From the NCBI GenBank assembly GCA_000091205.1, contig AP006502.2: 64,000 nt of DNA; one strand, given 5' to 3'. Shown one piece after another: positions 941-64,000 of this stretch. The DNA is from Cyanidioschyzon merolae. Its lineage: Eukaryota. The notes under the pieces are model-generated. The model ran no database searches. It had not been told where the DNA came from and was given only the letters and a program-made list of their open reading frames with translations. Position numbers and translations under genes: made by a program. Each line of letters begins with the position of its first letter. Position 1 is the first letter of the stretch.

Positions 941-3574
941 ATGGAAGAATCAGTGGGAACGTACGCGACGCTTCATAGTCGACAACCTGCGTTCGTTGGA
1001 GAGCTCGTGAACGCCCGGCAAGTCAGTGCGCACTCGTGGAGACAACGAGCGTCCATTTATTCCAACCGACAGTACGTGTTTGGCCTGCCACACTTTCAGA
1101 ACTTTGCTTCTAAACGAAAGCGAAGTCGTTATTCAGTGTACAGGACGCAATGTGAACCGTGGCGGCAGCCGGGTCCCGCTGAGGCACGCTGGGCCGCGCT
1201 TGCTGGAGCTTGCTCCACCCTGCGCGCTGTGCAGCGCCAGGCTGACTTGCGTGAACCTCCATGCACCGCAACTGAGCCTAACCAAAGAGCGAACGCTTCG
1301 ACCACCAACGGAGAGTGGCGTCCGCGGCTCGTTGTTGTCGGACCTCCGGGTTCCGGCAAAACGACACTAACCGAGCAGTTGCGTCAAGTGTACGGTCTTG
1401 TACGGGTCGGATGCGGCGACCTGCTACGTGCCCACGTTTTATACGGGACGGATATTGGTTTGGCTTCCAAGGCGTATATGGAATCTAACGAACTGGTTCC
1501 AGATGGAATCGTGATACCTCTCGTTCTCGAAAGACTTCGACAACGAGATTGTGAGGAACACGGATGGGTCCTAGACGGATTCCCTCGGACTGAAGCGCAG
1601 GCGCTGGCCTTGTTTGACTTTCTGGATATCGTAGGTGACAGCGCTGATGCAGAAAACTCCAGTCCTTCGATATCCATGGGCGCAAGGCCCGCAGGAACCA
1701 TCATTCTGCTCGAAGCCAGCGATGAGTGTCTCGTGGAACGTATCCGCCATCGCCGCATTGACCCCGTTACCCATACTGTCTACAATATGAAGTTCAATCC
1801 ACCAGAAGAAGAGGATATCATGGAAAGGCTCCTCCGTGTCCCATCGGATGAACCGGAAGCGTTTCGCCTACGCCTGACGCAGTACCGGGAAGCGCTGCCG
1901 GCGCTCCTGGCATGCATTTCCCAGCTGACACGGGCTCGGCGTGGCGATCAAGCGAACAATGTTGGCCTGATTCGTCTGAATGTATCCGAGCCAGGTGTTC
2001 AAGATCGTTTCCAAGAACTTGAGGAGCAACTGAAGCGAATCTGGGGAGCCAAAAGGCGATCCAACCAGTACGCGGAACACATATCCGGTTCGGTCTGGGT
2101 GCCGCATGCCTCGACGGCACTTGCACGAGCGCGAGCGGCAGGATTGCTGAATACGCCCTCCACGCGTACCTTTTCGGACTGGCGTGAGGACCCGGTCGAG
2201 ACCTCACTCAATGGAGGCGCTGGTCAACGCGATCAACTAGGATCGGGCTTGAGTACAGCCCACGCGGACGACGATGCCGTGGAACCGATGCTTGATGGCG
2301 CGTCGATGTCATCTGGCCAAGTGTCGGCAGCGGAGCAAGGTGCCGCGAGCAGTCCAGTTCGTCGATCCAACGACAACGATGCTCCAGAGTTGACGCTGCG
2401 CTCAGATCCCGAGCGAGTAAAAGCGTCACCTCAACCAGTCGATGCCGAAACAGCGAATCGCTCGACGGCGAGCAAGTACGAAAAGGCGTCCATCACTTTG
2501 ATTCGTTGCGACGGTGTTCAGTGCGTTCGCGAAGTTGTTCATCTTGGTGATATCGCTTTTCATGGGAGCGCGACCGAACAAGTAATGCTTCGTTGGAACG
2601 AACGACCTCGAACGGTCCTCTTGCTCGTCAAAAAGGGAGCTAATCTTTGTGAAATAGCGAAGCAAGCGGTGGACTACTTGCAAAACAGCGAACGGCTTCG
2701 AGTGCTCGTCGAGCCCTGGGTCCAGACGGAGCTGTTCGCGCTCGGAACCTATACCGATTCGTTCCATCACAGCCAGGACTTGCACCGCTGCGTCGATCTG
2801 GTAGTTTGTCTCGGTGGTGATGGCCTCATTCTGTACACATCTACCCTATTTCGAACGGCGGTGCCTCCAGTTGCTCCGTTTAACCTTGGATCTCTCGGCT
2901 TTCTGACACCATTCGAATGGAAAGACTTTCAGGGACACATACGTACCATGCTTTCCAGTGATCTTATGCTTTCGCTGCGAATGCGCCTCTTGGCCACGGT
3001 GGTGCGCGTCTCGGGCCAAGCCGAGCAACAGTTTCATGTTCTGAATGAAGTTGTCGTAGACCGGGGAGCTTCGCCTTTTCTCTGCCAGCTGGAGTGTTAC
3101 TGGGATGATGCACCGCTCGCCAGCGTCCAAGCCGATGGGATTATCGTTGCGTCGCCGACCGGATCCACAGCCTACTCCCTCGCCGCCGGTGGTGCTATGG
3201 TGCACCCGAGTGTGCCAGCTATCTGTGTGACGCCGGTTTGCCCGCACTCGCTGGGTCTGAGGCCGGTTGTGCTCCCAGACTCGGCTCGTATTCGAGTCCA
3301 GGTGAGCCCCGAGGCACGCTCCCATGCCTGGGCGAGTTTCGACGGGAAGCACCGGCTGCAGCTGCGGCGCGGGGATTCGCTGCTTGTCGAAATGAGCAAG
3401 TACCCAATGCCGACTGTGAACGCTACTGATCATGCTGCCGACTGGTTTGGTTCTCTGAATCGTGGGTTCGGTTTTAACGTGCGCGGAGCGAAACCGAAAC
3501 CTCGTGTGATGGGGCGCTCCTCCACAGCGGAGCAAGCGAGTGTTGATCGCTTTGCGGACGGCACCGAATCATGA
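941..3574 (+). CDS. Adenylate kinase and NAD(+) kinase fused in one polypeptide (877 aa). The true start may be downstream of the first Met.
   Basis: N-terminal half carries the adenylate-kinase P-loop 'VVVGPPGSGKTTLTEQL', 'LDGFPRT' and a LID-like 'RRIDPVTHTVYN'. C-terminal half carries NAD-kinase motifs 'VVCLGGDGLILYTSTLF', 'NEVVVDRG' and 'DGIIVASPTGSTAYSLAAGGAMVHP'. A single uninterrupted ORF joins them through a low-complexity linker (about 2000-2460). Confidence 0.8.
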   Translation: MEESVGTYATLHSRQPAFVGELVNARQVSAHSWRQRASIYSNRQYVFGLPHFQNFASKRKRSRYSVYRTQCEPWRQPGPAEARWAALAGACSTLRAVQRQADLREPPCTATEPNQRANASTTNGEWRPRLVVVGPPGSGKTTLTEQLRQVYGLVRVGCGDLLRAHVLYGTDIGLASKAYMESNELVPDGIVIPLVLERLRQRDCEEHGWVLDGFPRTEAQALALFDFLDIVGDSADAENSSPSISMGARPAGTIILLEASDECLVERIRHRRIDPVTHTVYNMKFNPPEEEDIMERLLRVPSDEPEAFRLRLTQYREALPALLACISQLTRARRGDQANNVGLIRLNVSEPGVQDRFQELEEQLKRIWGAKRRSNQYAEHISGSVWVPHASTALARARAAGLLNTPSTRTFSDWREDPVETSLNGGAGQRDQLGSGLSTAHADDDAVEPMLDGASMSSGQVSAAEQGAASSPVRRSNDNDAPELTLRSDPERVKASPQPVDAETANRSTASKYEKASITLIRCDGVQCVREVVHLGDIAFHGSATEQVMLRWNERPRTVLLLVKKGANLCEIAKQAVDYLQNSERLRVLVEPWVQTELFALGTYTDSFHHSQDLHRCVDLVVCLGGDGLILYTSTLFRTAVPPVAPFNLGSLGFLTPFEWKDFQGHIRTMLSSDLMLSLRMRLLATVVRVSGQAEQQFHVLNEVVVDRGASPFLCQLECYWDDAPLASVQADGIIVASPTGSTAYSLAAGGAMVHPSVPAICVTPVCPHSLGLRPVVLPDSARIRVQVSPEARSHAWASFDGKHRLQLRRGDSLLVEMSKYPMPTVNATDHAADWFGSLNRGFGFNVRGAKPKPRVMGRSSTAEQASVDRFADGTES

Positions 3575-6500
3575 GCAGTGCCGATTCTGAGACCTGGAAT
3601 GCGCAGACGGGACTCATTCACGCGAGCCCAGCTGAGGTCTGTGTGCTTGCCTCGCACACTATCCACGCAAATGTCCAGAAGAGTGGCATTCAGACGAGTT
3701 GTGGAGTCCGCGCTTCACCTTGCACCCAGTTCATGGAGGCATCAGGCAGTGTAGATGGGGCGCAGATACCGCCAAGGCTCGGCGCGCCCGGGCGCTAAAC
3801 ACTCTACAGACCCCGTATGTCCAGCGTTCAGCAGAGCAATTGCGACCTCGGCGGTGAGTTCGACTCCGCCTAGGTACCAGAAGCGCGTCGAGTCAGCGGC
3901 TAGAGGTCGCGTTGAACGTGCTTCCGTGGTCGTCGTCGTCGTCGACATCTACTGTTGCTGCTGGTGGACCCGGCGCTTTGTTGCGACGACGCATTGCCGG
4001 CCGGTATCGTCGGAGCTTGCGGTGCAGATGCCGCTCCGCAGAGGCCGCGTCTGCAGGCCAGCGTCTGTCGATAAGCGCAGGTGCAGTCGCGTCCAGGCAC
4101 TGGAGTCGTGCTGCCAGTCGCGTCGTAGTCGCACGGGGTCTGTTTCGTGGGGAGTGTTCGTGGCCGTTGCGCGGCTGCGGATGCAACCACAGGGTCCAGT
4201 TTGGTAACGCGCACCGCATCCGCACAATGCAACTGTCCAAACAGACACCACAGATACGTATCTCTCGCGTGGGAGCACTGCGACGCGCGTCTGCAGCCGC
4301 AGGCAGGCTATCGACTATGCAAGTCGTGCGGTTACGAGCGCGTAGGTCAAGCACATCGCCTCGGTCGCATGTTCTGGATGGGGGGCTCGTTACTGCCACT
4401 GGAGCAGTCCGGATCAGCGCGTATCTCCATTCACTTGACTTTCCATGTTTAGAGTTGCGTCGGGTTACTGGTTTCAGGCAAGAGATGCCGACTTTCATAA
4501 ACACGAACACATATCACATGACCATTCTCGAGCGCAACAATCCGCTCACAACCTCTTGAGCGCGGAAAGAGCGTGCCACAGCATTCCCAAAAGAAGCTCT
4601 CAAACCGGAACCAACCTGTCCAGTAGAGTAACGAGATTAGACTCCAGGTGTACGGAAAGAGAAGCAAGGTAAAGATCAGGAACGCGTAGTCGTAGCGAGC
4701 TGGATGGATGTCGTTGAAGACCTTCACGACGCGGGGAACTGCGCCGCTCCACGCTGCCGGTGCCGGGGCTGTCGTAATCGTTGCCGTAGAGGCCCCGACC
4801 GACGCATCGACTGCGTCCGTGGTCGGCGTGCCGTCGGCTGCAGGGCCCACAGGCACTTGCGTCAGGCGATGCTCGCGAACCGTTTGCCAGTAACCGTAGC
4901 GATGCCGCTTCTGCCAGTCCGCAACGTACGGCGGCAGAAGCGCACCCTCGGCACCCGCGAGCGTCGAGCGCTGACTCGCAGCGTCGGGTCCCAGGCACGG
5001 ACCCGCTGGCCAAGCTGATGCACCCTCCCCGGGACCCAGTTCTTCACCGCAAACGAAGCAGCGCGAGTAGTACTGCGACAGCGGTAGAAACACGAACGAT
5101 TCTGGCTCCAAAGAGTCCGCGTCCGCGGCCGGCGTCAGAGGCGAGGCCACCAGACGCGGCTGGTGCAGCGCCGCGGCACTGTTCCCCGCGAATCCTCAGC
5201 CGTCTAGTGGCTCAAGCGGCTGGGCTCCAGCCGAAAGACGCTGGACGCCCCGTCCAGACCTGCTGGTTTGACGCTGACCTCCTGTGCGTTGCGTCGACGC
5301 ACCCCCTCCGACGAACACATGCACGCGCTCGTTTGCATCAGAAGCTTTGGACGTTGCCCGATCACCTGGTCCAGCTACTTTCCCCTGATCACCGTTTATC
5401 ATGTGCGTTCGTCTCGGTTGGTGGCAAGTTCTAGTCTCTCTGCCGGTTCACAGCGGTCTCTGGCGTTCCAGACTCGCCCAGGATACCGCCTATGAATGCA
5501 GCGCGGACGTCCGGCAGCGCTCCCGGCGGTGGTATCCGTTGACGCAGCGTCGAGGGATGATGAGGCGGCGACGATCGACGCCACAAACCCGCAGAGGATC
5601 GCATGCTCCGTTGGCCTCGGGAGTCCTAGTAGCGGCATATTGCTCGAGCTGGAAGCTTCATATCGCAAACATTGCTATAGGCGCCACTGCTGTCGCTTTC
5701 GGCAGGCTCGGCACACGACAGGACGTAGGAAACGACCAGAATATCCGAGACGAATTATAGGTAATGGAACATGGAAGTAGGGGGTTGATGGATACTTTAC
5801 AGTGCACTGAAAAAAAAGCATAAAGAAAGAAGGAAGAAACGCGCATAATCGGAGAACGCTGGCGTAAGTAAACGCTCTGTCAATGAAAAAAATCGCAAAC
5901 ATAGCATGGTATGGTCTTTCAACTGGATTTTGGTTCATAACAGCTGAGTGGAATCGAATGCTTGTTAACAGTGCATTGCTGGAAGTCCTAATCACGGTGC
6001 AGTGTATACTCTGGATCCTAGTCGAATTGTTTGTAAAATGGATTCTTTATTGAATAGTGCACGGAGGACGGCATTCTACATTCAGGTCAGTCTTACGTCT
6101 ACCCTCAGATGGTTGACGAGCACTAAAAGAGAAAAGTACATGCGCTCCGCGTCAAAAACCGACAGTCTCAAAGAGTTCTTGCGTTCAATGATAGAAAATG
6201 ATTCGTTGATCATCGAACTGAAAGCAATAAGCGGCGAGTACAGCCACCGCCGGTATCTATCTTTCTAAACAGCTTGCTCCTTTAGCCCTGAATACACTGG
6301 GATACAGTGGGAAAAAGGTCCTAGTTCACGCACGGCCATCTTGCACGGAAATCCCAACGATTACAACGTTCCTGGAACTCAGCGACCGGTTTGAAACACA
6401 AGGACATCGGTTTGTTTTTTAAGACGGCGAGGCCTCATTCGGATGAAACGGTCGGAGCTTATATGCGTACTCGCCGAGCATGCATCCCGTTTTATATACA

Positions 6501-7056
6501 ATCGAACTCGAGGGGAATGAGGACATCATCTTCCGTTCAAGCCGCAGTGGACTCATTTGGCGGCTACAGTTTCGCTTATAGAGAAAGCGTATTCAACAGC
6601 ACCAACCACCTTGTCGAATCATGGAAGACTTGTTCGCTGACGCCTGGCGACGCTCTCCTAGTGATCAACTTGGTAGTTCACAATCCCCGCTGCGTCCCCG
6701 CTTTCGTGGATACTATTGAGGTAGAGCTGCTTTTCATTCCAGCGTACTCTTCGAGCTTAAATCGTATCGAAAGGAGTGTTTTCGCTCGTGACACGTAATG
6801 ATCACCTCAGAAGGCGAATCGCTGAAGCGCTTAGCACACATTGATACCGGGAGACATGTCGCCTTTCCCCTGCAAGTCCTTCTCCATCCGGAAGGTTCTC
6901 GCCTTAATGCATAAAGAAGTGAGTTCATTTGAATGAAAAATTCATGGGAACGGTATAGCCATGCAAGTCAAGGATCACGGGAGGCCGCTGTCGCCGGGTA
7001 CCTCGAAAAACGGAAAAATCCTAGGCTCGCCGACTATCGATCGAAAAAGGGTATCT

Positions 7057-7098
7057 GACGACGACGACAACGACGACAACGACGACAACGACAACGAC
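7057..7098. repeat. (GACGACGACAAC)n minisatellite
   Basis: Direct reading 'gacgacgacaacgacgacaacgacgacaacgacaacgac'. Confidence 0.9.
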
Positions 7099-7192
7099 CA
7101 AGAAGAAGAATAGAGGCGATAGACGAGAATAGACGTTCGCCCGACGTGACAATGCCGAGACTGAAACGACACAGAGGGCACGAGTTCCACCT

Positions 7193-7420
7193 ATGCTCCC
7201 AGTGGTGCATTCCACCGGCGGCAATAAACACATAGAGCTCGTGGACCGGGACTTCAACGCTGCCATCAATATCAGACGACTTGTGGCGCTGAAGACGAGA
7301 CCCGCGGAGCTGACACGATCTAACTTTGCGGGGCAGCCTCTCAGGCTCGAAATGTGCTTGGATATACTGAAACTGATTGCAGGCGGCGAGGCGAAAAGGC
7401 TGGACGTCGTCTGCGACTAG
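7193..7420 (+). pseudogene. TnpB/Fanzor-like C-terminal fragment with the RuvC-III motif
   Basis: 'HIELVDRDFNAAINIRRLVALKTRPAELTRSNFAGQPLRLE' matches the C-terminus of the longer copies ('EFVNRDFNAAINI...RPPELTRENFVGQ'). A degenerate 'FHLCSQWC' zinc-finger remnant lies in another frame just upstream. Confidence 0.55.
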
Positions 7421-7499
7421 GTTAACAAACTTACCCTCTATAGTTGTGAAATGTTTATCATTTTGCAGATTATAGTTAGGCGTATGTTCGCTGAACGCC

Positions 7500-7600
7500 A
7501 TTCTACAGACAAACGACGCCAGCAGTGTACAGTAGTGGCGAGAAGCCCGCCCTAGACGAAACGTCTCCAACTGACGTGCAGACGCCTCCCCGTCATTTTG
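7500..7600 (-). ncRNA. Candidate omega-RNA-like scaffold: conserved 3' tail of copy A
   Basis: After the 'GGRSK' codons the three copies' protein sequences diverge by frameshift. Nucleotide identity (about 85%) continues for about 100 nt through 'ccactactgtacac(t/c)gctg' before flanking sequence diverges. Confidence 0.3.
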
Positions 7601-8394
7601 GACCGGCCACCCAATACTGCCTCCAACTTTTTCTCATGTAGTTCGAGTTTGAGAAGTTGTCCAACAAAGTTCTCTCGTGTGAGTTCCGGAGGTCTCATCT
7701 CCAGCACCGCACATCTACTTATATTGATAGCGGCGTTAAAGTCTCGGTTCACGAACTCCACCCGTTTCTTGCCACTGATCGGACTAATTAATGCGAGTAG
7801 TCCACGAACGTTCGCCCTCCTTTCCATTTGCTCCTCCGTCAGCGGTCCGTACTTTGCTATTTCCTCAGGGCTCCTCTGGCGCTTCTCCATCTCGACCCTT
7901 TGAAGTGTGCACCCCAGTTCATGGTGTGTATACGATGTTCGGAACTCATCTATCGGGGTTGTAACGAACCGCCATGCGCACTCCTTGTACGTTCTTGTCG
8001 TTGGAGCTGGCATAGTCCCTTTTTGGGTCTTCCATCGCCCTGCTCCGCACGCTACTATCAGCCTCTGACTTTGATTCTCTTTGAGGGCACTCAACTGATT
8101 GAAAAAGTCCGCGAACGCCCGCTCCCTCTACCCGTATGGATTCATACGCAGACGAGCCAACCGAGGCTTCGTATACTCCTCCCAGAGCGCATCCCAATGC
8201 GCAACGCGAACATCCATGAATTTTCGAAAAGCTTCAAAGTCCGCTCCTCGGCTCGTGACCTCGCTCAAAGCTGCCAGGTGATCCTTCATTCCTGAATTCC
8301 AATTCTCGATTTTCTTCCTCGCATTCATTATACCGGATTCTCGATCGTATTTGGCTCTCGAGAACCTCAAAAGACGCATGTCTTTCCGACGCAA
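7552..8394 (-). pseudogene. TnpB/Fanzor-like RuvC nuclease ORF interrupted by an in-frame TAG (ORFs 8128..8394 and 7552..8094 share one frame)
   Basis: '...ARLRMNPYG*RERAFADFFNQLSALKENQSQRLIVACGAGRWKTQKG...IDEFRTSYTHHELGC...KKRVEFVNRDFNAAINI'. The stop falls at 8128-8130. The downstream ORF begins at a TTG, not ATG. Confidence 0.6.
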
Positions 8395-8498
8395 ATTACC
8401 GTCAGTGCCATCTTCCGAACGCTCCGGGCCTGCACCTTAGAGATATTCGGCGCCAGTTTGCCTCAGCTGGGCATGCTCTGCTGCGTTTTGTGACGGAT

Positions 8499-9917
8499 TC
8501 ACCGCTCCGCCGATACACCACTGTTCGTCGCATGCCCAGAGTGCTGAGGATGGGCATGCCCGAGCTGCTGCAGCGCACGCTCCAGAATACGCTTCTTTCC
8601 TATGCGAAAGCGCCGCGCCAGCTCCAATCGCTGGTTGCTCGGCTGCCATTGCTCATCCTCAGTGAGCGTCGTCGGCTTGCGCGCGAGCTCTTCGCGAATC
8701 AGTGCTATCAGACCAGTCGCCGAGAGGTGTTGGACCGACTCTGGATTGCGCACGCGGCCTGTCGCATCGAAAACGATCGTCGTCTCTGAGGCATCGTCCC
8801 AGAGCTTGTACGTGTCGTGCGGGTTATCCTCTTCCACGAATCCGTACAAAGCCAAAAGTTCATCGTTGGTCAAAGTGCCGTACGATATGAAGACCTGATC
8901 GCCTGCATGCGTGTCTCGATTGCTTATGCTGAGCGAAAAAGCATCATAAAAGTACTCATAAGCGACCTTCGATTGGACGCGAGAAGAATGATTGAAGAGA
9001 TCAATGAAAGGTGCAATGACATACTTCTTCAACGGTGCACCCTGCATGGACTGATAAATGCGCGGGTACAGCGCGTCAAATACGAGCTGCGACAAGACCA
9101 CCACCAGAAAGACGTTCAGTGCTGCGAACGCGTCCATGAGATGAAAGTTCCAGCTCGCTAGGGAAAGTGCCCCAGCGAAACACGCCTGACGCCAGCGTTC
9201 ACCGAATGGCGTCGTCTCGGAGGGTCCGCTGAATGCGCGCGTGACAACGACGTTCAACGCCCACTGAAAGTCCTGTTCGCTGAATAAACCTCCTCGCACT
9301 TTCAAATCGATTCCGCCTCGTTCGAATGTCTGCCGCACGAACCGACCATAGAGATCCTTCCATTTTCGTTCCTGCTCGCTGATAGCCCGCAAAAGACAAT
9401 CATACTGGAGCTCCCGACGTTCTGCATCTGTCCAGTACAGAGGCCGCTCGTCAAATGTTGTCGGCAAGAGACGGAACCAGGGCGAAAGTGTGCAGTTAGA
9501 CGCCGATACTTTGGCAGGGCCTCGACGCTGGTTTGGCCGGATCTCCCAGCGCTTTAATTTGCGACGCAAGACAAGAGTCTCTAGCTTTCGAGCAGACTCA
9601 GGATCTGCTTTGTACCGCTCGAAAAGCAACAGAAGCGCGAGACGAGCGTACCAAGGCGCCTGCTTCCAGAACATGGGCGCGCAGACCTCTTCTGGCAGAG
9701 GACAACCTCGTCCGCTATCATCGGAGCGGGTCTGCAACGCCAGAAACCCCGGCACTCGAGCGAGAATCGAACCTGCAGGCAAGGCGGTTTCAGCTCTGAG
9801 GCCGCGTAGGTGCTCGCGGCCAAAGTGCGCAATGCTGAGTTCAGCGGTTTCAATGCCGGCGCCTTTTGCCCACTCCATAAAGCCGACCTCTATGCTATGA
9901 TCATTCAGCGTTGTCAT
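8499..9917 (-). CDS. SET-domain protein-lysine methyltransferase (RBCMT/SETD3/SETD6-like). The ORF track extends to 10634, but the likely start is the Met at 9915-9917 or 10089-10091.
   Basis: 'MEWAKGAGIETAELSIAHF...GSILARVP' N-terminal region. SET core 'FIDLFNHSSRVQSKVAYEY...DTHAGDQVFISYG'. C-terminal Rubisco-LSMT-like substrate-binding region. The upstream 240 codons of the ORF overlap the 3' tail of TnpB-like copy B and look non-coding. Confidence 0.75.
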   Translation of the reverse strand: MTTLNDHSIEVGFMEWAKGAGIETAELSIAHFGREHLRGLRAETALPAGSILARVPGFLALQTRSDDSGRGCPLPEEVCAPMFWKQAPWYARLALLLLFERYKADPESARKLETLVLRRKLKRWEIRPNQRRGPAKVSASNCTLSPWFRLLPTTFDERPLYWTDAERRELQYDCLLRAISEQERKWKDLYGRFVRQTFERGGIDLKVRGGLFSEQDFQWALNVVVTRAFSGPSETTPFGERWRQACFAGALSLASWNFHLMDAFAALNVFLVVVLSQLVFDALYPRIYQSMQGAPLKKYVIAPFIDLFNHSSRVQSKVAYEYFYDAFSLSISNRDTHAGDQVFISYGTLTNDELLALYGFVEEDNPHDTYKLWDDASETTIVFDATGRVRNPESVQHLSATGLIALIREELARKPTTLTEDEQWQPSNQRLELARRFRIGKKRILERALQQLGHAHPQHSGHATNSGVSAER

Positions 9918-10619
9918 ATCTAGCTGTGGCGAATGCCTCGTGGCTTCCCTGGTCCATGTATTCTGCTGGGGTTCCTCGCCCGCTGTACTCCTTTGGTGCT
10001 CGCGCGTGTTGCAGTGTTCGCCGCTTTTTTCTTCGCCCAGCTCTCCCTCTCGAGATAGCGTCGCACGCACGCTGGACCGGAAACGAGTCATCAACCGATT
10101 ACACGGAGAGAGGGCCGGTCCGCTGCACACGGACAACGCCACCGGGCACCGTTGCTGCCACACGGTCGACGGCAGCAGCCACGCAACGGTCATCTGGTCT
10201 GGTTCAGCTCTACCAGAAAACAAAAGCATAGTCCCAGTGAGTGACAACTGATCCGACGCAGCCTCACTCGAAGACGCAATCACACGCGCACCTCGCAAAA
10301 AGCAGAACCGTTCAGTGGACGACAATTTCGGAACGTCGCAGGTCACTGCGAAGCTATGATGCGCTGTGCCGCTGCGCTCCAGAGTTGCAAACACTCGCCC
10401 GTTCTTTCGGGGCGCAGCGTAGCCCGGTGCTCCAGTGTGCTTCCAGAGGTCCTTCTTGTACGTCTGAAACGTTTCTACGAAACCACTGAACAGCTTTCTA
10501 TCGTCCAACACGAAACTCAGGAGCTTCAGTCCTTGAGCGAACGAGCATGAGCTTCGTGCTCGCGAGCAGTTCGAGATAGGACGTTTTGGATCAAACGAGG
10601 ATCCGTCGCTGAGTTCGCG

Positions 10620-10730
10620 CACCCCTGGAAGCAAACGCCTTTCGAAAGTCGAACAACAGCGGTGTACAGTAGTGGCGGCAAACGCGCCCTAGACAAGAAG
10701 TCTCCAACCGAGATGCAGACGCCTCCCAGG
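10620..10730 (-). ncRNA. Candidate omega-RNA-like scaffold: conserved 3' tail of copy B
   Basis: Aligns base-for-base with 7500-7600, 'ggtggccggtc.aaa...ggaggcgtctgca...gttggagac...gtctagggcg...gccactactgtacac'. Confidence 0.3.
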
Positions 10731-11635
10731 TTTTTTTCGACCGGCCACCCACTACTGCTTCCAATCTTGTCTCATATAGCTCGACTTTGAGAGGTTGTCC
10801 AACAAAGTCCTCTCTTGTCCACTCTGGAGGTCTCGTCTCCAGCACCGCATATTTCCTTATATTGATTGCGGCGTTATAGTCACGATTCACAAACTCCATA
10901 CGTTTCGTGCCATTGATTGTAATTAATAATGCGAGTAGCCCTCGCACTTTCTTCCTTCTTTGCATTTGCTCTTCCGTCAGCGGTCCGTATTTTGCTATAT
11001 CCTCAGGGCTCCTCTGGCACTTTTCCATCTCCACTCTCTGAAGTGTACAACCCAGCTCATAGTGTATATACGATGTTCGGAACTCATCTACAGGTATGGT
11101 AACAAAACGCCTTGCGCACTCTTTGTATGTTCTTGTCGTTGGAGCTGGCGTAGCTCCTTTTTGGGTCTTCCAGCGCACCGCCCCATACGCTACTACGAGC
11201 CTTTGATTTCATTCTCCTTCAGGGCACTCAACCCATTGAAAAAGTTGGCAAACGCCCGCTACCTCCCACCGTATAGATTCATACGCAAACGAGCCCACCG
11301 GGGCTTGGTATACTCCTCCCATAGCGCCTCCCAGTGAGCAACACGAACTTCTATGAATTTCCGAAAAGCTTTAAAGTCCGCTCCTCGGCTCGTCACCTCG
11401 CTCAAAGCTTCCAGGTGCTCTTTCATTCCTGAGTTCCAAGTCTCGATTTTCTTCCTCGCATTCATAATACCGGATTCTCGATAGTATCTTGCTCTCGAGA
11501 GCCTCAAAAGACGCATGTCTTTCTGACGTAAGTTACCATCAGTCCCATCTTCCGCACACTTTGGTACAGCGATGGTTATGATGTTCGTATTCCCAGGGTC
11601 CGCGCCAACGACAAAGTCGTTATCCTGCACCTCCT

Positions 11636-11828
11636 GCATCGCAAGATCCGCACCCTTCTCATCTACATCCTTCGCCGAGCCGTCTACAAGGTTGTACTTT
11701 TCCACTTCCTGCGTCGCAGGATCCGCATCCTTATCATCTACATCCTTCGCCGAGCCGTCTACAAGGTCGTCATCCTCCACTTCCTTCGTCGCAGGATCCG
11801 CATCCTTCTCATCTATATTCTTCGCCAC
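11636..11828 (-). repeat. 75-nt tandem repeat (about 2.5 units) encoding an acidic peptide repeat at the N-terminus of copy B
   Basis: The unit 'gcaggatccgcatcctt.tcatctacatccttcgccgagccgtctacaaggt.gt.......ccacttcct.cgtc' repeats. The peptide reads 'DEKDADPATKEVEDDDLVDGSAKDV', 'DDKDADPATQEVEKYNLVDGSAKDV', 'DEKGADLAMQEVQDNDFVVGADPG'. Confidence 0.7.
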
Positions 11829-11839
11829 GGGCGAAGCCG

Positions 11840-12880
11840 AGGACGGACCAGGAGGCGAGCCCGACGGCGCTGGAGGCGCAGAAGAACGCGTTTGCCGTTG
11901 GCGTGGACTCTGCGAACACGAACATCGTTACCATTGCAGCACCCAAGCGTGAGGAAGATGGCTCTGTCGGCAACTTATGTCAGAAAGACATAAGACTGTT
12001 GAAGCTCTCATGAGCGAGATATTACCGAGAATCCGGTATAATGAATGCGACGAAGAAAAGTGAGACATCGAATTCAGGGGTTAAGTGAATTTGGAAGCGA
12101 TCAGCCGGGTGACGAGCCGCGGAGCCGATATTTAAGCGTTTCCAGAGGCTATGAGCACTCACGCATCTGAAGTCGAGAGCCTTTGGAAAGAATGCACAAA
12201 GTTCAGGTGGGCTCGTCTGCGTATGAACCTGTACTGTAGGAAGCAGCGAGCATACGCCAGCTTTTTCATTCAATTGAGCGCCCTCAAGGAGGACAGGAGC
12301 CAAAGGCTCGTAGTAGCATACGGGGCAGGTCGATGGATCACCCAAAAAGGGTGTACACCAGCCTCCAACGACAAGAACGTACAAGGAGTGCGCACACCGT
12401 TATGTCAAAACACCTTTAGATGAGTTTCGAACATCTTCTACACACCACGAGCTGTGTTGTACACTTCAGAGGGTCGCGATGGAGAAAAGCCAGCGGCTCG
12501 CTGACGGAAATGCAAATGGCAAGGAGGGCGAAACTTCGAGGACTACTCGCTTTGGTTAATAAAACTAATGATAGGAAGAAACGAATAGAGTTCCTGGACT
12601 GAGACTTTAACGCCGCCATCAGTATAAGGAAATGTGCAGTACTGGAAAGAAGACCCCCGGAGTTGGCGAGAGCCAACTTTGCGAGGCAACCTCCCAAAAT
12701 GGAGTGATACGAGAAGAAGTTGAAACCAGTAGTAGGTGGCCAGTTGCGGAACGCCGGCACAGGCGTCTGCACATCATTGGGTAGACAATCGGTCTACGAC
12801 GGACGGTGTGAGAAACGCCACTCCTGTACACTGGCTTTCCAGCGTTTCTCTTTTGCAAGGCGTTTGGTGGTGTTTCCAGA
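11840..12880 (+). mobile_element. TnpB/Fanzor-like element copy C, inverted and immediately head-to-head with copy B
   Basis: Frame-corrected translation gives 'AFAVGVDSANTNIVTIAAPKREEDGSVGNLCQKDIRLLKLS*ARYYRESGIMNATKK...'. ORF 12151..12423 reads 'WARLRMNLY...SALKEDRSQRLVVAYGAGRWITQKG', then frameshifts. ORF 12420..12602 is followed by '*DFNAAISIRKCAVLERRPPELARANFARQ'. Confidence 0.6.
12715..12880 (+). ncRNA. Candidate omega-RNA-like scaffold: conserved 3' tail of copy C
   Basis: 'ggtggcc...ggcgtctgcac...ccactcctgtacactgg...aaggcgtttg...ttccagagg' matches the reverse complement of the A and B tails. Confidence 0.25.
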
Positions 12881-13923
12881 GGCGAATTGTTTATCAAAAA
12901 CGTCTTCTATCGATCTTCGAAACCAACGTGCTGCTTCCTCTGTGCGGCACGGGGCGTACGCTATGCGCTTTTCTGCTGATTGACAGCGGAAGCGACGAGT
13001 CCGGTTACTGCCTTGAAGACTTAGACGCTTTGGAGAGACCATCACGTGGATTGTTTCAGTTTTCTGACCTCCTCCTAACCACCACGCTCGGCTCTCTGTT
13101 GCAATGGCACGCGCAGCAGCTCTCATGGCAGCCAAAGCTGAACCCGGGCATCGAGAGAGTGGAAAGCTGCATCAAAGGTGGCGCAAAGCCAAGGAAGCCG
13201 GTCATCTAAGCAAGCTTGCATCGCCTGCAGAGCTGCGAGCACTCGTCCAAGCGAAACTGACACCCGAGGAGCAAGAGCGTTTCGGGATGCAGTGTGCAGG
13301 GCTGGCCGCCAAGGCACTTGAGGTACTCGACAAGTCGCTTACATCTTTAGAGCAAGACATAGAGAGCGAGTCGTGTGACTGGGAAATAGAATCGGACGCT
13401 GCTATGGACCGTGTTGCGAGACGATTCCTTGCCGATCTCGAACAGCTAAAGCAGACTGGCAGCACGCGTCGACTCACCCAACTCAGTATTTGGCGTCGCA
13501 TCAGTCGCTATGTCTTACTGGCGGAAAGGCGAGCATGAACTGCAGGCTGAAGGCAGTCCTTTTGTGAGGCAAGTCGCGAAGATCGCGGACCAGGCATCCA
13601 AGACTCCGGAATACCGCCAGGTCGTTGCCTGCGGGCATCTGGAAGAGCTCGCAGATGCGGCAACTGCAGATGGTGTATTCGGTTCGCAGTCGCGGTCGAT
13701 GTCACGTATCTTACGTCGCCCAGAAAGTCGGTTTCGACTCTTGCTCACGAAACTAGAGCTTGGTGAGGAGCTCTGCACACGCGACGAGCGGCGTTTGATG
13801 CTGGCATTGGATACCTCTGATGCGAGACTTGAACCCGAACGCATGCGCTCGAAGAAGAGGGCACCTGGTGGAGCGCAGGATGGCGCCTCTGCAAAGCGCG
13901 ACCACGGGAGGTCTGCATCCGTT

Positions 13924-13948
13924 TCGTCGTCGTCGTCGTCGTCGTCGT
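13924..13948. repeat. (TCG)8 microsatellite
   Basis: Direct reading. Confidence 0.9.
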
Positions 13949-15067
13949 TAGAGCCAGAGCACGAGGACGACGTGCACCCAGCGGCCAAGAACGCGTCTTC
14001 CGCGAGAAAGAAAAGACGACATCATCGGCGACGATCATCCAACAAAAACGAAACCCTGGAGAATCCTCAGTAAGCTAGCATTTGAGCGAGATTGCTGCCG
14101 AATCATCGCCGTGCCCTGGCCCTGTGGATATCGCATGATGCATCGTTTACAGCGTTTCACCCATGATACCGGGTGGTGATTATCGCCGCCGGAATACCTC
14201 AGGAATAGATCGCGGATCGTTGGAGGCTACGCTCGCGTCCATCGCGTGTACCATGTGCTGCAAAAGTGGTGCTTGTCTGCAGCTCCACAAAGAGCACATG
14301 ATCGCGTGCTGTGCTGCGAGCACCACGGCGCCGGCCTCTGTCGGCAAACGCGCTCAAAGGCGTACTCGCGACAAGCATGAATTCAGCAGGAATATTGGCG
14401 CTGGTTGAGGCACTACGACTGACTATCGAGAGACCAGTCTCAGCAACCGCAGCATGCGTCGATCACTGGGGCGCAGCTTAAACTCCAGCAGCGATGCGGC
14501 CGTGTCAGAGCCAGACCTGCAGACTAGTGGACAGAGCGCAGCATGCCTCATTCTGGATTTCGCAGAAGTACCCGCCAGAGACGCTTTTCAGGGTAGCCAG
14601 TGGCGGATCGCGTCTATTTCGCTACCGGGAATTCGGACGGATTCCGCGTCCAGTCGACCGGGGACGGTTCACGCTTTCCACTCGGACGTCAACGCGTTTC
14701 ACTTTGGCGATGAAGGTGCTGCATTCATCCACCGACCAGTCTGCATGACGATTCGACGAACATGGGGCGGAACCTTTGATGCATACCTCTGGAGCATGAT
14801 TCGCAGAGGTGTACTTTTTTGCAGGTCGTCGAGGTGGAGCGTGTGGCGAGAGCCACATATTTGAGCGACCTCGCACCGGGCGTGATCCAAGACACCATTC
14901 GGCTGATGCTCAAGCGTGCCTCGCGTACCCGACATGTCGTTGCTCACCTTCGTGATGCTGGTGTGCTTCTGTGGGTAGCGCACTTGCGCCCGTTTGCGAA
15001 GCGTAGCGGACCTTGAGGACAAGTGGCACGCTCCAGCAGCCATGCGCTTGCATAGGTCATGCATTCA

Positions 15068-18133: not shown

Positions 18134-18499
18134 GCAGAATTAGAGTTGCATATTGTTCGGTACCCGTGCACTGCAGTGCAGAGTATACGGACCACGAAGC
18201 ATGAATATGGCAAAGAAGGTTCGTTTTTATGTATGGAGCGGTGCGTATGCGCATCCGCTCACACACGTTCACAAGCCCCAAGTCGGCTAGCTAAGGATTC
18301 CTGCACTGCACTGCACTGCCGTTCTTGGTCGTTCGAATTCGCAATCCAGAAACGCATCCCATGCGGACGCTCGAGACGCTCTCTGCTCACCAGCGCAACT
18401 CCATGAGGCTCCATTCCTGCTATGCGTATTCGTATGCTATGTTGATGTGTATAGCAGAAGGTCGAGATGTAGAAGCAATGTGCTGTATAGATCGTAGAC

Positions 18500-19800
18500 G
18501 AATAGAATGTTAGATATATATTCTTTACTGAACAGTGCAAGGAGGACTGCATTCCTCGTTCAGGTACGGTTCACCACAGTATTCAGATGGACGAGGAAAA
18601 CTGAAATAAAGAAGCAAGTACATGCGATCCACACCGAAACCAGATATACTCATAGCGTGCTTGCGTTCACTGGTAGAAAAACGACCCGTTGATTACTTTA
18701 GGGAAGGGGAAAGCGACGATAATACCCATTACCTCTATCTATTTTTCTCGCCAGCTAATTCGTGTGATCCTGAATGCACTGGCATACAGTCGCGATAAAG
18801 TCCTGGTTCATGCACAGCCGTCTTGTATCGAATTCGCAACGACAGCGTTCCCGGAACGTCCCGATCGGTACGAAGCACAGAGACGTAGCTCTGTCTTTTT
18901 CAGACGATGCGACTTTCTTTGGCCGAAATGGTCGGGGCGTACATGGGTAGTCGCGGAGATGGAGCCAGCTGTATGTATGATCGAACTTGATGAGAGCGAG
19001 GACATCATCAACTGTTTCAGCTGCAGTGGATTCATTTGGCGGCCGCAGTTTCGCTCAGAGAGAAGGCTCGTCGAACAGCACACACTGTACCGAATCATTG
19101 AAGAAATTTCCCCTGACGTCTGACGACGTCGTCCGGTTGTACGGCTTGGTATTTCACCATTCCCCTTGCGTTCGAATGTTTGCTGATTCGATCGGGGAAT
19201 AGAGCTGCTTTTCATTCCTCGATATAATCCGTGGTTGAGCCCCATAGAAAGTGTTTTTTCTATTATGAGACGTTTTTAATGCTCAACGGGGCGAGTCGCT
19301 GCAGCGTTCAGCACACATTGGTACCTGGCCACATTGTGTCCTTCGTCTGCAAGCCCTTCTCGCTCCGGTTAGCTCCTCATCTAACGGCATAAAGAAGCGC
19401 GCCATTTGAAGAAATAAGAAATCCAAGGGATGAGCTGCGGTGTACACTTCAGAACATCGAGATAGAGAGAAGGCAGCGGAGCGCATCGCGCGATAGAAAA
19501 GTACGGAGAGCTGACAGAGCAGTCAATGGTACTGAGTACTCGTGTTCTGGCAATCCTTGCATGGGTGAGTTCAACAAGCGGCATTATATGCGAGGAGTTC
19601 GTGAAACGAGACTCCAACGTCACCTTCAGTATCCGACGATATATAGTGCTGAAGAAGAGAACCGAGGAGCTGACGCGATACAGGTTTATGGGGCAGTCTC
19701 TCAGACTTGAGGTGTGCAGGAGGAAGCTGACGTCAATAGGTGGTGGTCGGTCGAAAAAGGCTTCACCTCTGCGAAAATTGCTTCGCCCATAACTTGCGTT
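18500..19800 (+). mobile_element. Decayed, diverged TnpB/Fanzor-like element (copy E), the same subfamily as copy D, in an AT-rich island
   Basis: 'SLLNSARRTAFLVQV' (18507..18692) and 'RTSSTVSAAVDSFGGRSFAQRE' (18987..19202) parallel copy D. The 3' fragment 19526..19792 'EFVKRDSNVTFSIRRYIVLKKRTEELTRYRFMGQSLRLEV' is a degenerate RuvC-III tail. Nucleotide similarity 19320-19450 against 6840-6960. Confidence 0.45.
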
Positions 19801-40694: not shown

Positions 40695-40990
40695 CAGGTG
40701 CTTTTTCGCGGTTTTGTAGCGGTTGCGGTCGAAGTGCGTTCATTTTCAAACATAAGATACCCTAGGGAAAGGTGCGGACATAAAATTCGGGGAACTTGGA
40801 GGGCGGCATTGCTGGGTTCTACAAAAAACCCGAAAGAAGTCCATGTTCTCGCTGACCCGCGCGCGAAGCAGAGCGAGTGACGGACAGGAAGAAGAAGAAG
40901 AAGGAGATAGAGGAAACACTGTTTGCCTGACAAGTCGATGACGAGACTGCATTAGCACAGAGGGTATGCGTTCGAGGAATCCTTGCAATA

Positions 40991-41221
40991 TTGAGTTCCC
41001 CTAGAGGCAGTGCATGTAAGGAGTTCGTAAACCTGAACGCTAACGCTGCTTCAAGTATAAGACGACGTGCTGTGCTGAGGACGAAACTCGAGGACCTGAC
41101 GCGAACCAGCATCGTCGGGCAGCCTCTCAGGCTCGAAGTATGCCTCGATAAACCGAAATCGATAGCAGGCGGCCAGTCAAAACAGGCTGGAAGGCGTCTG
41201 CGAGGGCGTAGATATATATAA
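40991..41221 (+). pseudogene. Isolated degenerate TnpB/Fanzor-like C-terminal fragment
   Basis: 'EFVNLNANAASSIRRRAVLRTKLEDLTRTSIVGQPLRLEVCLDKPKSIAGGQSK' parallels '...EFVNRDFNAAINI...RPPELTRENFVGQLLKLEL...AVLGGRSK'. Confidence 0.4.
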
Positions 41222-57843: not shown

Positions 57844-58818
57844 GCTTCAAAGTATATATGTCAGTCTATGAATTGAACTATATTACCTGTGTTAAAGTGA
57901 ATTTTAGCACCGTATGTTACGAGCAGTCGCGAAAGCTCCACACACGCACACACACAACCGTTGTATACCGAGCGGAGCAAAGAATTCGAGCCATTCGTGT
58001 GATGCGACGCAGCATGCGCTCGCCCGCAGCCGCTCGCCCGCAGCCGCTCCGTCGTGCGCATGCCGCGCCGCATCACACGATCCCAGATGTGACCGATCGC
58101 GGCGAACGACGTGACATCGATTTCCTTCCGATTCGATAGGGCGTGTGTCCGCTGACCACGGATCCAGGACTGCGGGATGGATGCAGGTACTCGGGGAAGC
58201 GTGCATCATGTTGCACTCTAATTTCGATTACCGTTAAGTTCTCTTGGGCGTGCGGGCCGTTTCGTACGTTCTATCTTGAACCGAGTGCCTGCCGTGCTGT
58301 ACCCATCATAGCACCGAGACCGCTGGCACGGATGCCGTATTGAGAAAGCACGCGGTATTGCGCGAATACTGAGGGTGTCGGCTCGATGCCATGATTCGTT
58401 CAACGCGGCACCGCAGTGCATAATCGTGCCGGGAGCCAGCAAGCTGTGCATGCGGACATCCTGTCTGCCGACGCGCGGAGCGATATGCTACGAGTCCGCT
58501 GCGACCAGGGCGACGCCCAGACGCAGCGTAACCGTCCCTAGTGCAAGAATAAAGTGCGATGCCGACGATTTGCTCAGGTATTGCCACAGCACGCGCCACA
58601 GAACAGAGCGTGAAACACGAGTCCAACAGACTTGGACGCTCCGCGGGACCTAATACCGAGGAGGTAAACTCTCGAGAATATGGAAAACCTTTTCTTCCTT
58701 CCACGCTACCGAGAAAGCGAAACGAAATTATGATACGGTTGCTAGTCAGTGATAAGTTTCTGTTCTTTCCGCACCATACTGCATCACAGGGATGATGCGT
58801 GCGCAGCTACGAGCCATC

Positions 58819-58969: not shown

Positions 58970-59110
58970 TATGGATAGTCGCTCGACAAACTTGGAAGTA
59001 CGGCGTGGAATGATGGGCGCTTTCCCGGAGGCCGATACCCATCCAGCCCGCAATCTGGGATCCATGGTCCATGGGAACGTTTTGTCATCGAAAAGAAAAA
59101 TCCGTCGCTG

Positions 59111-61222: not shown

Positions 61223-63229
61223 GCACATGGACCGCTCCGTTGTACCTCGCGTCCGTTACTATGTACTCTAAACATCTCAATATACGAGCAGCAGGTTGTT
61301 GGTTTCGTTTTCAGTTGTGGCGTCGAGTGGATACCATTCCGAGCGCCTCGATGCTGGCGTCGCGTCTGAGCCCAGGCCTGCGCTTGCCCCGAATCAAAGT
61401 GCTTCAGGCAGGTCGTTCTATTGGTGCCAGCGTGACCTGGTCGTCCAAATTGTGAAGCAGACCAGTTGATGTGTCCTGTTCTGTGCACACCAGACAGCAG
61501 GCTCTGTAGATGTCTGGACGTGGCGTACGGCTCGGCGGTTTGTTTGTGCTTACCTGGCGTGCGGCGAGCGACCCAGCCGCGCCCTGAAAGCGCCTGCGCG
61601 TGGTTATTGTTATTGTTATTGGGTACTACAAGCAGCAATTGCGCCTTTGGGAGGATGCACCATCGACACATCGATTTTCTGTAATCAAAAACATGTGCCT
61701 GTCGGCAAGCGACATCCTCTGGTACGCCATGAGCCTTCCAAGGGTGCAGCGCCTGCACCACGGCGCACAGCATCGCTGAAGGTACTCGAAGCAGCTGGAT
61801 AGCTGGGGCCTGGGAATGGGTGTGCGTGGGGAAAGATCACGGCGGACGATGCGCTGGGGGATACCCAGGGGAAAAAATAGATTGGATCTGTACGCATGCC
61901 AGGCTAAAATGGAACGCGTCCCCCAGGCGAACTCAGGTGTCTGCTCTAAGGAAAGGGTCTCTTTCCATGATCATGATCAGCACCAGCGTTTGCAGGCTTT
62001 TCCGCTACTGTCCGTTTTTCCTCTCTCGTTCTCTCTTATATCCGGCATTGCACAGGTCGGACGCTCGTATCCCTTGCGAGGTAATCCCAACAGTCGACGG
62101 ACGTGGACAGTGGCTTTAGAGACTGGATTTCGGAGTTTCCGACGGTTGTCGACGCATTTCACGTACAAACCGAAGTTGCGATCTACGCTTTGCGAACCAT
62201 TTCGATTTCCTTCGTATGCAACCTCTGTGCATGCTGCGCAGCGGTAACGCTTGACGCTGATCAGGTATACCCATAGGTCCATCATTTCTCTCGTGGCGCG
62301 GAGGCCGCGTTGCGGCGCATGAAGGCTTGCACCCTCGCTCAATACACACGTTCTTGTTGGGTACTGAGAGCTTCCCCATATGCTTCCAAAGATTTCCGCG
62401 CCTACTTTCGTTCTTTAACGATCACGCGCTTCTTCGGCACGGTGCCTGCGGCGCGCTATCCGCTGCGCTCGCAAGTGCAGGCCCTTCTATTCGATGCTAT
62501 ATTCGTGGAGCGCCAAATTACTCACAGTGACATAAGTAACGGAAGAAGAACCCAACTTAGAAAGCTTTCCGATCCGGTTACTGTCCCTTCTTGGAGAACG
62601 GTGACAATCTCGCCACTGAGAGCGATCGCCGTTTTGACTCAAGTCCGAGTTGAAGTCCCTCTGCCATGCACACAGAAGAGACGGGAGCCTTTGCAAGTAT
62701 ATCCCGTCGGGGGGACCATGCTGCTGTGGACTTTTGTTTCGTTGATGTCCACAAAAAGAGAAGGACTGGCAGTTCGAACGTTGTTCTTTATTTGGTGCGA
62801 CGAGTCCATTGAAATTTGGGCAAGAGCTGACGAACAAGTCATCAAGGGACGAGGTCAAGTATTTTATTCCGTGAATCCGGCGGTTCGAAATGCTGCACCC
62901 ACGAGTTGCCATGAACCAAAATGATCGAGAACTTGAAGCGTATGTGATTTGACGAAGCTACACATAGGGATTGGACACGAGCGGAGGCTTTTAAATGTGA
63001 ATCGCATGATAAGATCGGCTATTAAATGAACCCTTTTTCGATAAAGTTGCGAATCATCTTGATTCTAGTGACGCTACGAAATCCGAGTAGACAGCATCGG
63101 AGGAGCCGCTTCGAAAGCGCGACCGAGAATCCGAGAAATTCCAATGAATCCATTAGCACCCTGTGTTCACTATCCTCTTTTTATACACATGTGATCAGAG
63201 AAACAAAAACGCTTTCTTCGAACGTCCAG

Positions 63230-63670
63230 GATAAATGAATACCTACTCACAGACGCTTCCCAGTCTTTTCCGACCGGCAGCCTGCTATCGGCTTCAGCTT
63301 CTCCTTGTACACTTTGAGCCTGAAAGGTTGCCCCATGAAGTTGGATCACCTCAGGTCCGCAGATCTCGTCTTCTGCACCGCATATCGTCTGGCGTGGATG
63401 GCGGCGTTGAAGTCTCGGTTCACGACCTCCATGCGTTTATTGCAGCTGGTTGGACTCACTATCGCGAGGCTCACTCGAACTTTTGCATTCTGTACCACTA
63501 CAGTCCCGCCATTGGCCTGTCGAGCAAACACCTTTTTTTTTGTCAGTGTCCCTCTTCTTCGTCACTTGCTCTTCTTCGTTCGATGGCCGGCGAGCATATT
63601 GTTTTCGTCCATTTCGGGCGCCCGGCGATGACGGGCCTGCAGGATCCTCGACTGCCATGTGCATAACTGT
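63230..63670 (-). mobile_element. Degenerate TnpB/Fanzor-like 3' fragment (copy G)
   Basis: ORF 63346..63531 reads 'NKRMEVVNRDFNAAIHARRYAVQKTRSADLR'. The upstream frame has a Cys-rich remnant 'GVCSTGQWRDCSGTECK', a possible zinc-finger relic. Antisense frames match those of copy A (7034..7570). Confidence 0.45.
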
Positions 63671-64000
63671 CCCTTGGATGTTTTGTTTCTTTAAAATGAA
63701 CGCACTTGTTTATGCCCCTTTGTGGTGACCTTCACGGACGGAGAAGGGCCTGCGGAGGAACGACGCATGATATCCCGATGTGTCGCCGTGTGCTGAACGC
63801 TCTAGCGATTCACCTAGAGGATCGATCAATACGTTTCATAATAGACAACACGCCTTCCATGGGCTTCAACCACGGAGCGTACGGAGGAACGAAAAGCAGC
63901 TCTACCCCGATAGAGTGCGCAAAAGCTCGGACGCAATGGGAACGCTGAAATGCCACGTTTTCCAACAGAGGGACGTCACCAGACCCACAGGTGAAAGGTC

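Follow-up and report, generated by a model that had tools for sequence, protein, structure and literature searches.

In TnpB and Fanzor systems, the guide RNA is encoded at the 3' end of the element. The Fanzor1 (Fz1) proteins are omega-RNA-guided endonucleases that depend on a target-adjacent motif (TAM) and contain REC, WED, RuvC, and TNB domains (PMC11423790; bioRxiv 10.1101/2023.06.13.544871). Their published motif, D-X-[TS][TS]-X-X-[C4]-X-RD, includes a C4 zinc finger located between RuvC-II and RuvC-III. In the available passages of a survey published in 2013 (Bao & Jurka, Mob DNA 4:12; PMC3627910), CMe-1A is the sole Fanzor1 family listed for the red alga Cyanidioschyzon merolae. We have analyzed a stretch of 64,000 nucleotides (hereafter, the window) of chromosome 20 of C. 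merolae 10D, in which copies of a TnpB/Fanzor-like gene are grouped around a host SET-domain gene. We are highly confident that this locus consists of three CMe-1A insertions, all ancient, mutated, truncated at the 5' end, and independent of one another, plus one member of a second, older family. The identity of the element is already known, i.e., CMe-1A has been on record in this very genome since 2013 and the biochemistry of Fanzor1 since 2023.

According to the same passages, CMe-1A comprises about 150 copies, each approximately 80% identical to a consensus of about 3 kb; it has no terminal inverted repeats (TIRs), its target-site duplications (TSDs) are given as undetermined, and its transposable element class as unknown. 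The 635 bp at its 5' end correspond to another repeat, TE-N2_CMe, and its protein, CMe-1, was among those on which the Fanzor1 family was defined (PMC3627910). The copy number agrees with the initial annotation of this DNA, which had judged the family to be abundant in the genome, and a search of 5.8 billion proteins yielded 280 close relatives of up to 516 aa. We have taken the 3169-bp CMe-1A consensus and the 734-aa CMe-1 protein from the supplementary files of PMC3627910. The protein has a basic N-terminus, a REC/WED region, a split RuvC domain with D431, E603, and D672, and a TNB region in which the usual Cys4 zinc finger is lacking. All the motifs quoted in the initial annotation were found again by three-frame translation, and they are the sequence of this published protein.

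Exact-seed repeat finding located two direct copies at 7520-8369 and 10657-11506, approximately 3137 bp apart and 81-88% identical, and an inverted third copy at 11869-12744. A tblastn search with the published CMe-1 and with a reconstructed, frameshift-corrected consensus placed these copies at 8433-7555 (minus strand; copy A), 11675-10692 (minus; copy B), and 11819-12785 (plus; copy C), together with four fragments at 7157-7399, 19396-19759, and 40943-41218 (all plus) and 63492-63226 (minus), the E-values of copies and fragments ranging from 1e-15 to 1e-169. At the DNA level, copy A occupies 7496-8433 (minus), with its 3' terminus at about 7496, and corresponds to consensus positions 2236-3169 (aa 441-734), with 88.4% identity over 934 nt by blastn (window 8423-7496). 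Copy B occupies 10634-11853 (minus), corresponds to consensus positions ~2093-3169 (aa ~406-734), includes units of a 75-bp repeat, and is 88.8% identical over 1024 nt (window 11853-10657, consensus 2093/2120-3142). Copy C, which is older or more diverged, occupies 11850-12862 (plus) and corresponds to positions 2140-3169 (aa ~402-734), with 76.2% identity over 1042 nt along that whole interval. Copies A and B share 84-87% amino acid identity with CMe-1.

Each of the three copies is thus the last ~30% of the element, and the REC/WED and N-terminal regions are missing in all of them alike. The initial annotation had taken them for near-complete copies, a description that does not fit the 3' third of a 3169-bp element. 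It was correct, on the other hand, in considering every copy to be damaged and the locus to hold relics rather than an active member. Copy A contains one in-frame stop in an otherwise single frame and lacks the RuvC-I Asp (D431). Copy B retains D431, E603, and D672, and carries one stop and one frameshift (frames -3 then -2). Copy C has accumulated at least three frameshifts and about ten stops, one of them in place of the Arg of the RD motif beside D672. Every copy in the window is a pseudogene, and none is able to make the nuclease.

More than twelve further CMe-1A loci were found in near-identical metagenome strains, allowing us to compare 25 copies from the window and the metagenome loci in an identity matrix over a shared 930 bp. 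Between unrelated copies the identity is 81-87%, and to the consensus it is 87-89%, a star-like pattern that points to one old burst. This matrix bears on the possibility that the copies arose by local duplication, with a segmental duplication around the SET gene having produced A and B as direct repeats, and an inverted duplication having produced B and C as the arms of a palindrome. The arrangement itself would fit, since A and B are repeated in direct orientation at a distance of 3137 bp, and B and C abut head-to-head at 11849/11850 and share about 55 nt of weak similarity past the published 3' end. However, the 84.8% identity between A and B is the level of unlinked copies (81-87%), and B and C are only 72.7% identical, their arms being unequally distant from the consensus (89% for B and 78% for C in the matrix). 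The truncation points of A (2236) and B (~2093) also differ, a second head-to-head pair with a different junction is present at an unrelated locus (L016), and part of the extra 3' similarity is loosely common to other copies, suggesting that the consensus is a little short. Local duplication is consequently improbable as an account of the locus, and the pairings of A with B or of B with C as local duplicates were ruled out on the identity matrix. Because A and B are no closer to each other than to copies elsewhere, their insertions, one on each side of the SET gene, were separate events.

It might also be argued that the remaining ORFs (open reading frames) are functional or domesticated host genes, e.g., a RuvC-only nuclease or a regulator, as ORFs of 180-195 aa are still open in copies A and B, and hot-spring metagenome contigs carry these same copies with 99% identity. 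Nevertheless, each copy carries stops and/or frameshifts, copy A has no RuvC-I Asp, and REC/WED is absent from all of them. Among the matches listed in the 5.8-billion-protein search there was no NCBI-annotated protein of the CMe-1 family, and the annotated proteins flanking copy A and the neighboring fragment have consecutive accessions (BAM83146 and BAM83147). The 99% identity extends through the flanks, and therefore it reflects near-identical strains and not selection. We regard domestication as very unlikely, and maintain that the copies are dead CMe-1A insertions.

The assignment of the CMe-1A protein to Fanzor1 was approached with profiles and with a structural model. A profile made of close relatives only (A1) matched nothing relevant among the PDB sequences. 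A profile search of 1.84 billion cluster representatives yielded 1514 relatives at E<=1e-3, typically 600-740 aa long, and the distant relatives added from this search gave a profile of 35 diverse sequences (A2, including the relatives P0037 and P0008). This second profile matched PpFz1 of Parasitella (9cf0; E = 1.8e-18), SpuFz1 of Spizellomyces (8gkh; E = 1.1e-10), and GtFz1 of Guillardia (9cer; E = 1.6e-6) in the PDB, with no other credible match. The D/E/D residues of RuvC-I, -II, and -III, equivalent to D431/E603/D672 of CMe-1, are invariant across the 35 relatives. The AlphaFold2 model of P0008, which is 82% identical to the window consensus and was modeled without the first ~225 residues of the full protein, has a mean predicted local distance difference test (pLDDT) score of 73, rising to about 90 over RuvC. 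Fanzor proteins (SpuFz, PpFz, and GtFz; E = 5e-11 to 5e-7) take the first seven places among its Foldseek matches in the PDB, ahead of Cas12 and TnpB. Homology and the predicted fold thus support that the CMe-1A protein is a Fanzor1 of the RuvC nuclease type. The initial call of a TnpB/Fanzor-like RuvC nuclease is in this way borne out: the profile recovered Fanzor1 chains and not an unrelated family, the modeled relative has a RuvC (RNase H-like) fold in the REC/WED/TNB arrangement with Fanzor proteins as best matches, and the D/E/D triad is invariant.

The same data bear on the idea of a prokaryotic TnpB of the IS200/IS605 or IS607 type that came in recently by horizontal transfer, derives from an organelle, or is a contaminant. 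What speaks for it is that the sole Pfam signal comes from a Cas12f1-like/TnpB TNB model. The profile, however, matches Fanzor1 at E = 1e-18 to 1e-6 with TnpB not listed, and the Foldseek match to Fanzor (5e-11) exceeds that to TnpB (3e-4). Moreover, the prokaryotic models of NCBIfam give no match, there is no TnpA, the 734 aa with a long N-terminal region fit Fanzor1, and the locus lies on nuclear chromosome 20 with host genes on both sides. A prokaryotic origin of this kind is extremely improbable.

The sequences also define the 3' end of the CMe-1A element. Nine independent 3' ends can be aligned through ...CGTCGTTCGA-CTT-TCGAACGGCG-TT and then diverge, with only loose similarity for 5-30 nt more past the hairpin TT, which includes a loosely conserved (T)GGTG. 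The family form of this hairpin, CGTCGTTCGA-CTT-TCGAACGGCG, has a 10-bp stem and a 3-nt loop at the extreme 3' end. It is best kept in copy B (10634-10656, minus strand) and degraded in copies A (7496-7518) and C (12840-12862), and it was also noted at loci L001, L003, and L010-L012. The published CMe-1A consensus also holds a degraded form, and it seems to be a few to about 30 nt short at its 3' end. In the nine 3' ends, 84% of the cells in the terminal 10-bp stem are paired, vs. 31-60% in slid controls, and the hairpin is present in the predicted minimum free energy fold.

Several results weigh against reading CMe-1A as an omega-RNA-guided nuclease of the Fanzor1 type. There is no intact full-length ORF among the sampled copies, the longest having 516 aa, and the only full-length DNA copy sampled, at locus L002, is broken into several ORFs. 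The Pfam scan of the window ORFs gave only a sub-threshold match of 11 residues to Cas12f1-like_TNB (E ~0.2). Neither CMe-1 nor its clade has the canonical Cys4 zinc finger. As for the RNA, stem pair counting in the nine 3' ends found no covariation and RNAalifold little, the predicted fold of the last 235 nt has only a slight advantage over shuffles (z = -1.9), and Rfam gave no match at gathering thresholds in the whole window; a permissive Rfam scan of 7000-13100 produced one chance microRNA match only. NCBIfam models matched neither the window ORFs nor the closest database proteins, and the Pfam scan of the latter returned sub-threshold noise only. As the direct Pfam and NCBIfam scans are nearly empty, it is the profile, the fold, and the published consensus that carry the family assignment. 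Precomputed annotations had flagged PF26935 (DUF8286), which was discarded, being unmatched in every Pfam scan.

The zinc-finger region deserves a separate comment, because the initial annotation had interpreted it as degenerate (C to H/Y), i.e., as damage. This interpretation stands for the H-to-Y change of copy B, a single local substitution. For the rest it does not, since the consensus already lacks the Cys residues. In CMe-1 the region reads EFRTSYTHHELGC...RGLLALVSTT, with all four canonical Cys missing, and the family consensus is TSYTHHELGC...RGLLAL, a reading that copy A also carries. Among the 35 relatives, 16 have His and 2 have Cys at position +7, position +10 is Asp or Thr, Cys occupies position +32 in 24, and the fourth Cys is present in none, the D/E/D triad being invariant despite this. 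The missing Cys4 zinc finger is therefore an ancestral trait of the whole clade (the 1514 cluster representatives) and not local damage. CMe-1 can be counted as a Fanzor1 despite having no C4, because of its homology and fold, and because the authors who defined Fanzor1 included CMe-1. We have accordingly filed it as a Fanzor1 member of a zinc-finger-less clade, with a putative nuclease activity.

By homology with SpuFz1, PpFz1, GtFz1, and TnpB, the 3' end of CMe-1A may be the source of an omega RNA. In an intact copy, the protein would bind an omega RNA derived from the 3' end of its own transcript. This RNA would span the last part of the ORF and a tail of about 75-100 nt with the terminal hairpin, a position assigned by the same comparison. 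The guide would be read from the DNA flanking the element, and the complex would cut TAM-adjacent DNA matching the guide. Such cutting is thought to aid the persistence or spread of an element through repair from the element-bearing copy, a role in the life cycle that we infer for CMe-1A. Given the lack of covariation, the hairpin may act as DNA or as RNA. In the window, the preserved 3' ends could yield at most omega-RNA-like transcripts.

The four fragments tell a different story. The initial annotation had assigned the piece at 7193-7420 and four scattered ones to the same family as copies A-C, but they belong to a separate, mariner-linked group in which a DDE_3 transposase remnant precedes the Fanzor piece. 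The 64 kb hold three copies of CMe-1A and four of this second family. Self-blastn grouped the stretches 6014-7422, 18490-19762, 40732-41204, and 63241-63984 at 66-71% identity, and their Fanzor pieces are about 45-54% identical to CMe-1 in amino acids. F1 (6014-7422, plus strand) contains a DDE_3 remnant at ~6388-6798. The remnant of the Fanzor N-terminus begins with the ATG at 6961, and that of the C-terminus is found at 7157-7399 (aa ~640-721), so the piece at 7193-7420 of the initial annotation is the tail of F1. It lies tail-to-tail with copy A, approximately 60-75 bp away. F2 (18490-19762, plus) has a DDE_3 remnant and a C-terminal Fanzor remnant (aa ~600-734), its start being missing. 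F3 (40732-41218, plus) keeps the Fanzor start region and a C-terminal remnant (aa 640-734). F4 (63226-63984, minus) retains the end of the DDE_3 remnant, Fanzor aa 1-41 (63664-63533), and then aa 645-730 (63492-63226). The transposase remnant of F2 matches DDE_3 (PF13358) at E = 2.9e-9 (37.4 bits, cutoff 28.6) and that of F1 more weakly (E = 3.9e-4). In F1, F2, and F4 it is found upstream of the Fanzor piece on the same strand, and the transposase is a pseudogene. In F1, F3, and F4, the Fanzor start (aa 1-41) and end (aa ~640-734) lie close together, indicating an internal deletion. No convincing TIRs were found in F1 and F2, nor were TA duplications, and the ends may be eroded because the copies are only 66-71% identical. 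A microsatellite of the (GACGACAAC) type, translated as DDDDNDDNDDNDND, is present at 7060-7110 only in F1, inside the Fanzor N-terminal remnant.

F1-F4 thus make up a second, older family with a Tc1/mariner-type transposase first and a Fanzor behind it, the latter carrying an internal deletion. Because CMe-1 is the sole C. merolae Fanzor1 family listed in the available passages of PMC3627910, this family may be unreported, and it may be a hint that the Fanzor of this alga once rode a mariner.

Just upstream of RuvC-I, between WED and RuvC-I, CMe-1A carries a tandem repeat of 75 bp that encodes 25 acidic aa (...KDEDEKEADPATQEVEDNDFVV...) and is modeled as disordered. Its number varies from 1 to ~7 units among the copies, copy B having three at 11600-11826. 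The 5' truncation points of B and C fall inside this repeat and that of A just downstream, and a switch point at another locus (L015) is also inside it. At the head-to-head junction (11849/11850), copy B reaches consensus position ~2091 and copy C starts at 2140, while in the second pair, at the unrelated locus L016 (1791-1794), the arms end at positions 1976 and 2029. In both pairs there is an offset of about 50 nt between the arms, which are as diverged as random copies. This geometry is the one that snap-back (self-primed) synthesis would give. A search for TSDs around copy A, the B|C dimer, and the L016 dimer revealed no meaningful one of at least 6 nt.

Downstream of the 3' end of the element, 9 of 11 independent loci have their nearest host gene on the element's own strand, often within ~200 nt. 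These are L001, L002, L010-L013, L016, L017, and window copy B, the exceptions being L003-L006, with a Myb gene, and L015, with TCP1. The bias towards insertion upstream of host genes on the same strand is only suggestive, as the one-sided binomial p is ~0.03.

We have considered whether CMe-1A spread by a 3'-anchored copy mechanism, unlike the cut-and-paste hosts of Fanzor1. The proposal is based on the fact that the 3' terminus and the hairpin are kept, the 5' ends are truncated, and no TIRs or TSDs were found, as well as on the dimers with a ~50-nt offset at two loci and the 9 of 11 downstream genes on the same strand. We consider it a speculative idea, with a small chance of being right. 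If it were true, a zinc-finger-less Fanzor1 from a thermo-acidophilic alga would ride on, or help to drive, a replicative element, and the candidate modes would be retrotransposition-like, rolling-circle-like, or nuclease-triggered one-sided repair copying.

The 5' part of CMe-1A is represented elsewhere in the window by the repeat that it shares with TE-N2_CMe. The stretch 58153-58768 (plus) matches consensus positions 21-636 (blastn, 73% over 624 nt), and smaller pieces of the 5' region are present at 58989-59090 and 5678-5781 (both minus). At locus L002 (13904-14108), a TE-N2_CMe piece adjoins, in antisense, the 3' end of an element that carries an RVT_1 (reverse-transcriptase) ORF. From this arrangement, one may ask if TE-N2_CMe is the tail of a retroelement.

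Concerning the genomic setting, the window is nuclear, its CMT locus tags being those of chromosome 20, and five of its long ORFs are identical to annotated C. merolae 10D proteins (BAM83146, 83160, 83162, 83167, and others). The SET-domain gene that the initial annotation had placed between the copies is confirmed by an exact match to BAM83147.1 (8499-10229, minus strand). It belongs to the context and is not part of the element. BAM83147.1 is annotated as 'similar to protein N-methyltransferase', and its Pfam matches to SET and Rubis-subs-bind are weak. Its ATG lies ~400 bp downstream of the 3' end of copy B, and its stop ~65 bp upstream of the truncated 5' end of copy A.

Three metagenome contigs of the Joint Genome Institute (L007-L009; Ga0207433, Ga0080006, and Ga0078972) share ~99% identity with this 10D region along as much as 9.3 kb, all relics included, so strains very close to 10D are present in those environmental samples. 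An empty-site search among the metagenome contigs with the SET gene was given up, since 3/3 are ~99% identical to the window and carry the same copies, and for this reason the comparison gave no termini. When positions 1-3747 of L015 are compared with window 10634-14449, the contig matches window 11675-14449 at 96% and then switches inside the 75-bp repeats. Beyond the switch there is a different CMe-1A copy (86% identical to B), followed by a TCP1 chaperonin gene where the window has the SET gene. This suggests a strain-level rearrangement at the 75-bp repeat; a chimeric metagenome assembly is possible as well.

These results confirm that a known Fanzor1 family litters the compact genome of C. 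merolae, and, as the locus contains only dead copies, they matter little in themselves. They do offer a worked example in which Fanzor relics are recognizable from their motifs alone where Pfam fails. They also expose some loose ends in this model alga, whose genome is finished, i.e., a family whose transposition mechanism is unclassified and a clade that is zinc-finger-less. In addition, CMe-1A relics seem to lie at rearrangement breakpoints between closely related strains.

Among the described systems, bacterial TnpB (ISDra2 TnpB, 8h1j) and Cas12 share the RuvC/TNB core with CMe-1 at Foldseek E = 3e-4 and weaker, whereas CMe-1 lacks both a TnpA partner and a CRISPR array, is encoded in a eukaryotic nucleus, and has an N-terminal half twice as long. 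SpuFz1, PpFz1, and GtFz1 are closer. They share with the CMe-1 family the WED strands with 'TDG', the RuvC-I DPG, the RuvC-II E-x-R-T-S/T, and the RuvC-III RD-x-NAA-x-N in the same order, although the overall identity is only 12-17%. They carry CxxC...CxxxC zinc ligands that the CMe-1 clade does not have in the aligned region, and the acidic 25-aa tandem repeat between WED and RuvC-I also distinguishes CMe-1 from the solved Fanzor1 proteins. SpuFz1, PpFz1, and GtFz1 are experimentally established as omega-RNA-guided, TAM-dependent endonucleases (PMC11423790).

The second family resembles the Mariner-Fanzor1 composites PUl-1, from Pythium ultimum, and PGv-1, described in the available passages of PMC3627910, in having a transposase followed by a Fanzor on the same strand. 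It differs from them in that the Fanzor is internally deleted, the transposase is a pseudogene, and no TIRs or TA duplications were found. The closest relative of copies A-C is CMe-1A itself, from the same genome and family, with 76-89% DNA identity to the consensus given in that paper, the copies of the window being pseudogenes of the 3' third only and the published element measuring 3169 bp. Beyond what the available passages of PMC3627910 contain, the present analysis adds a defined 3' terminus with a 10-bp hairpin, the 1 to ~7 repeats of 75 bp, the head-to-head truncated dimers, and a second, mariner-linked Fanzor family.

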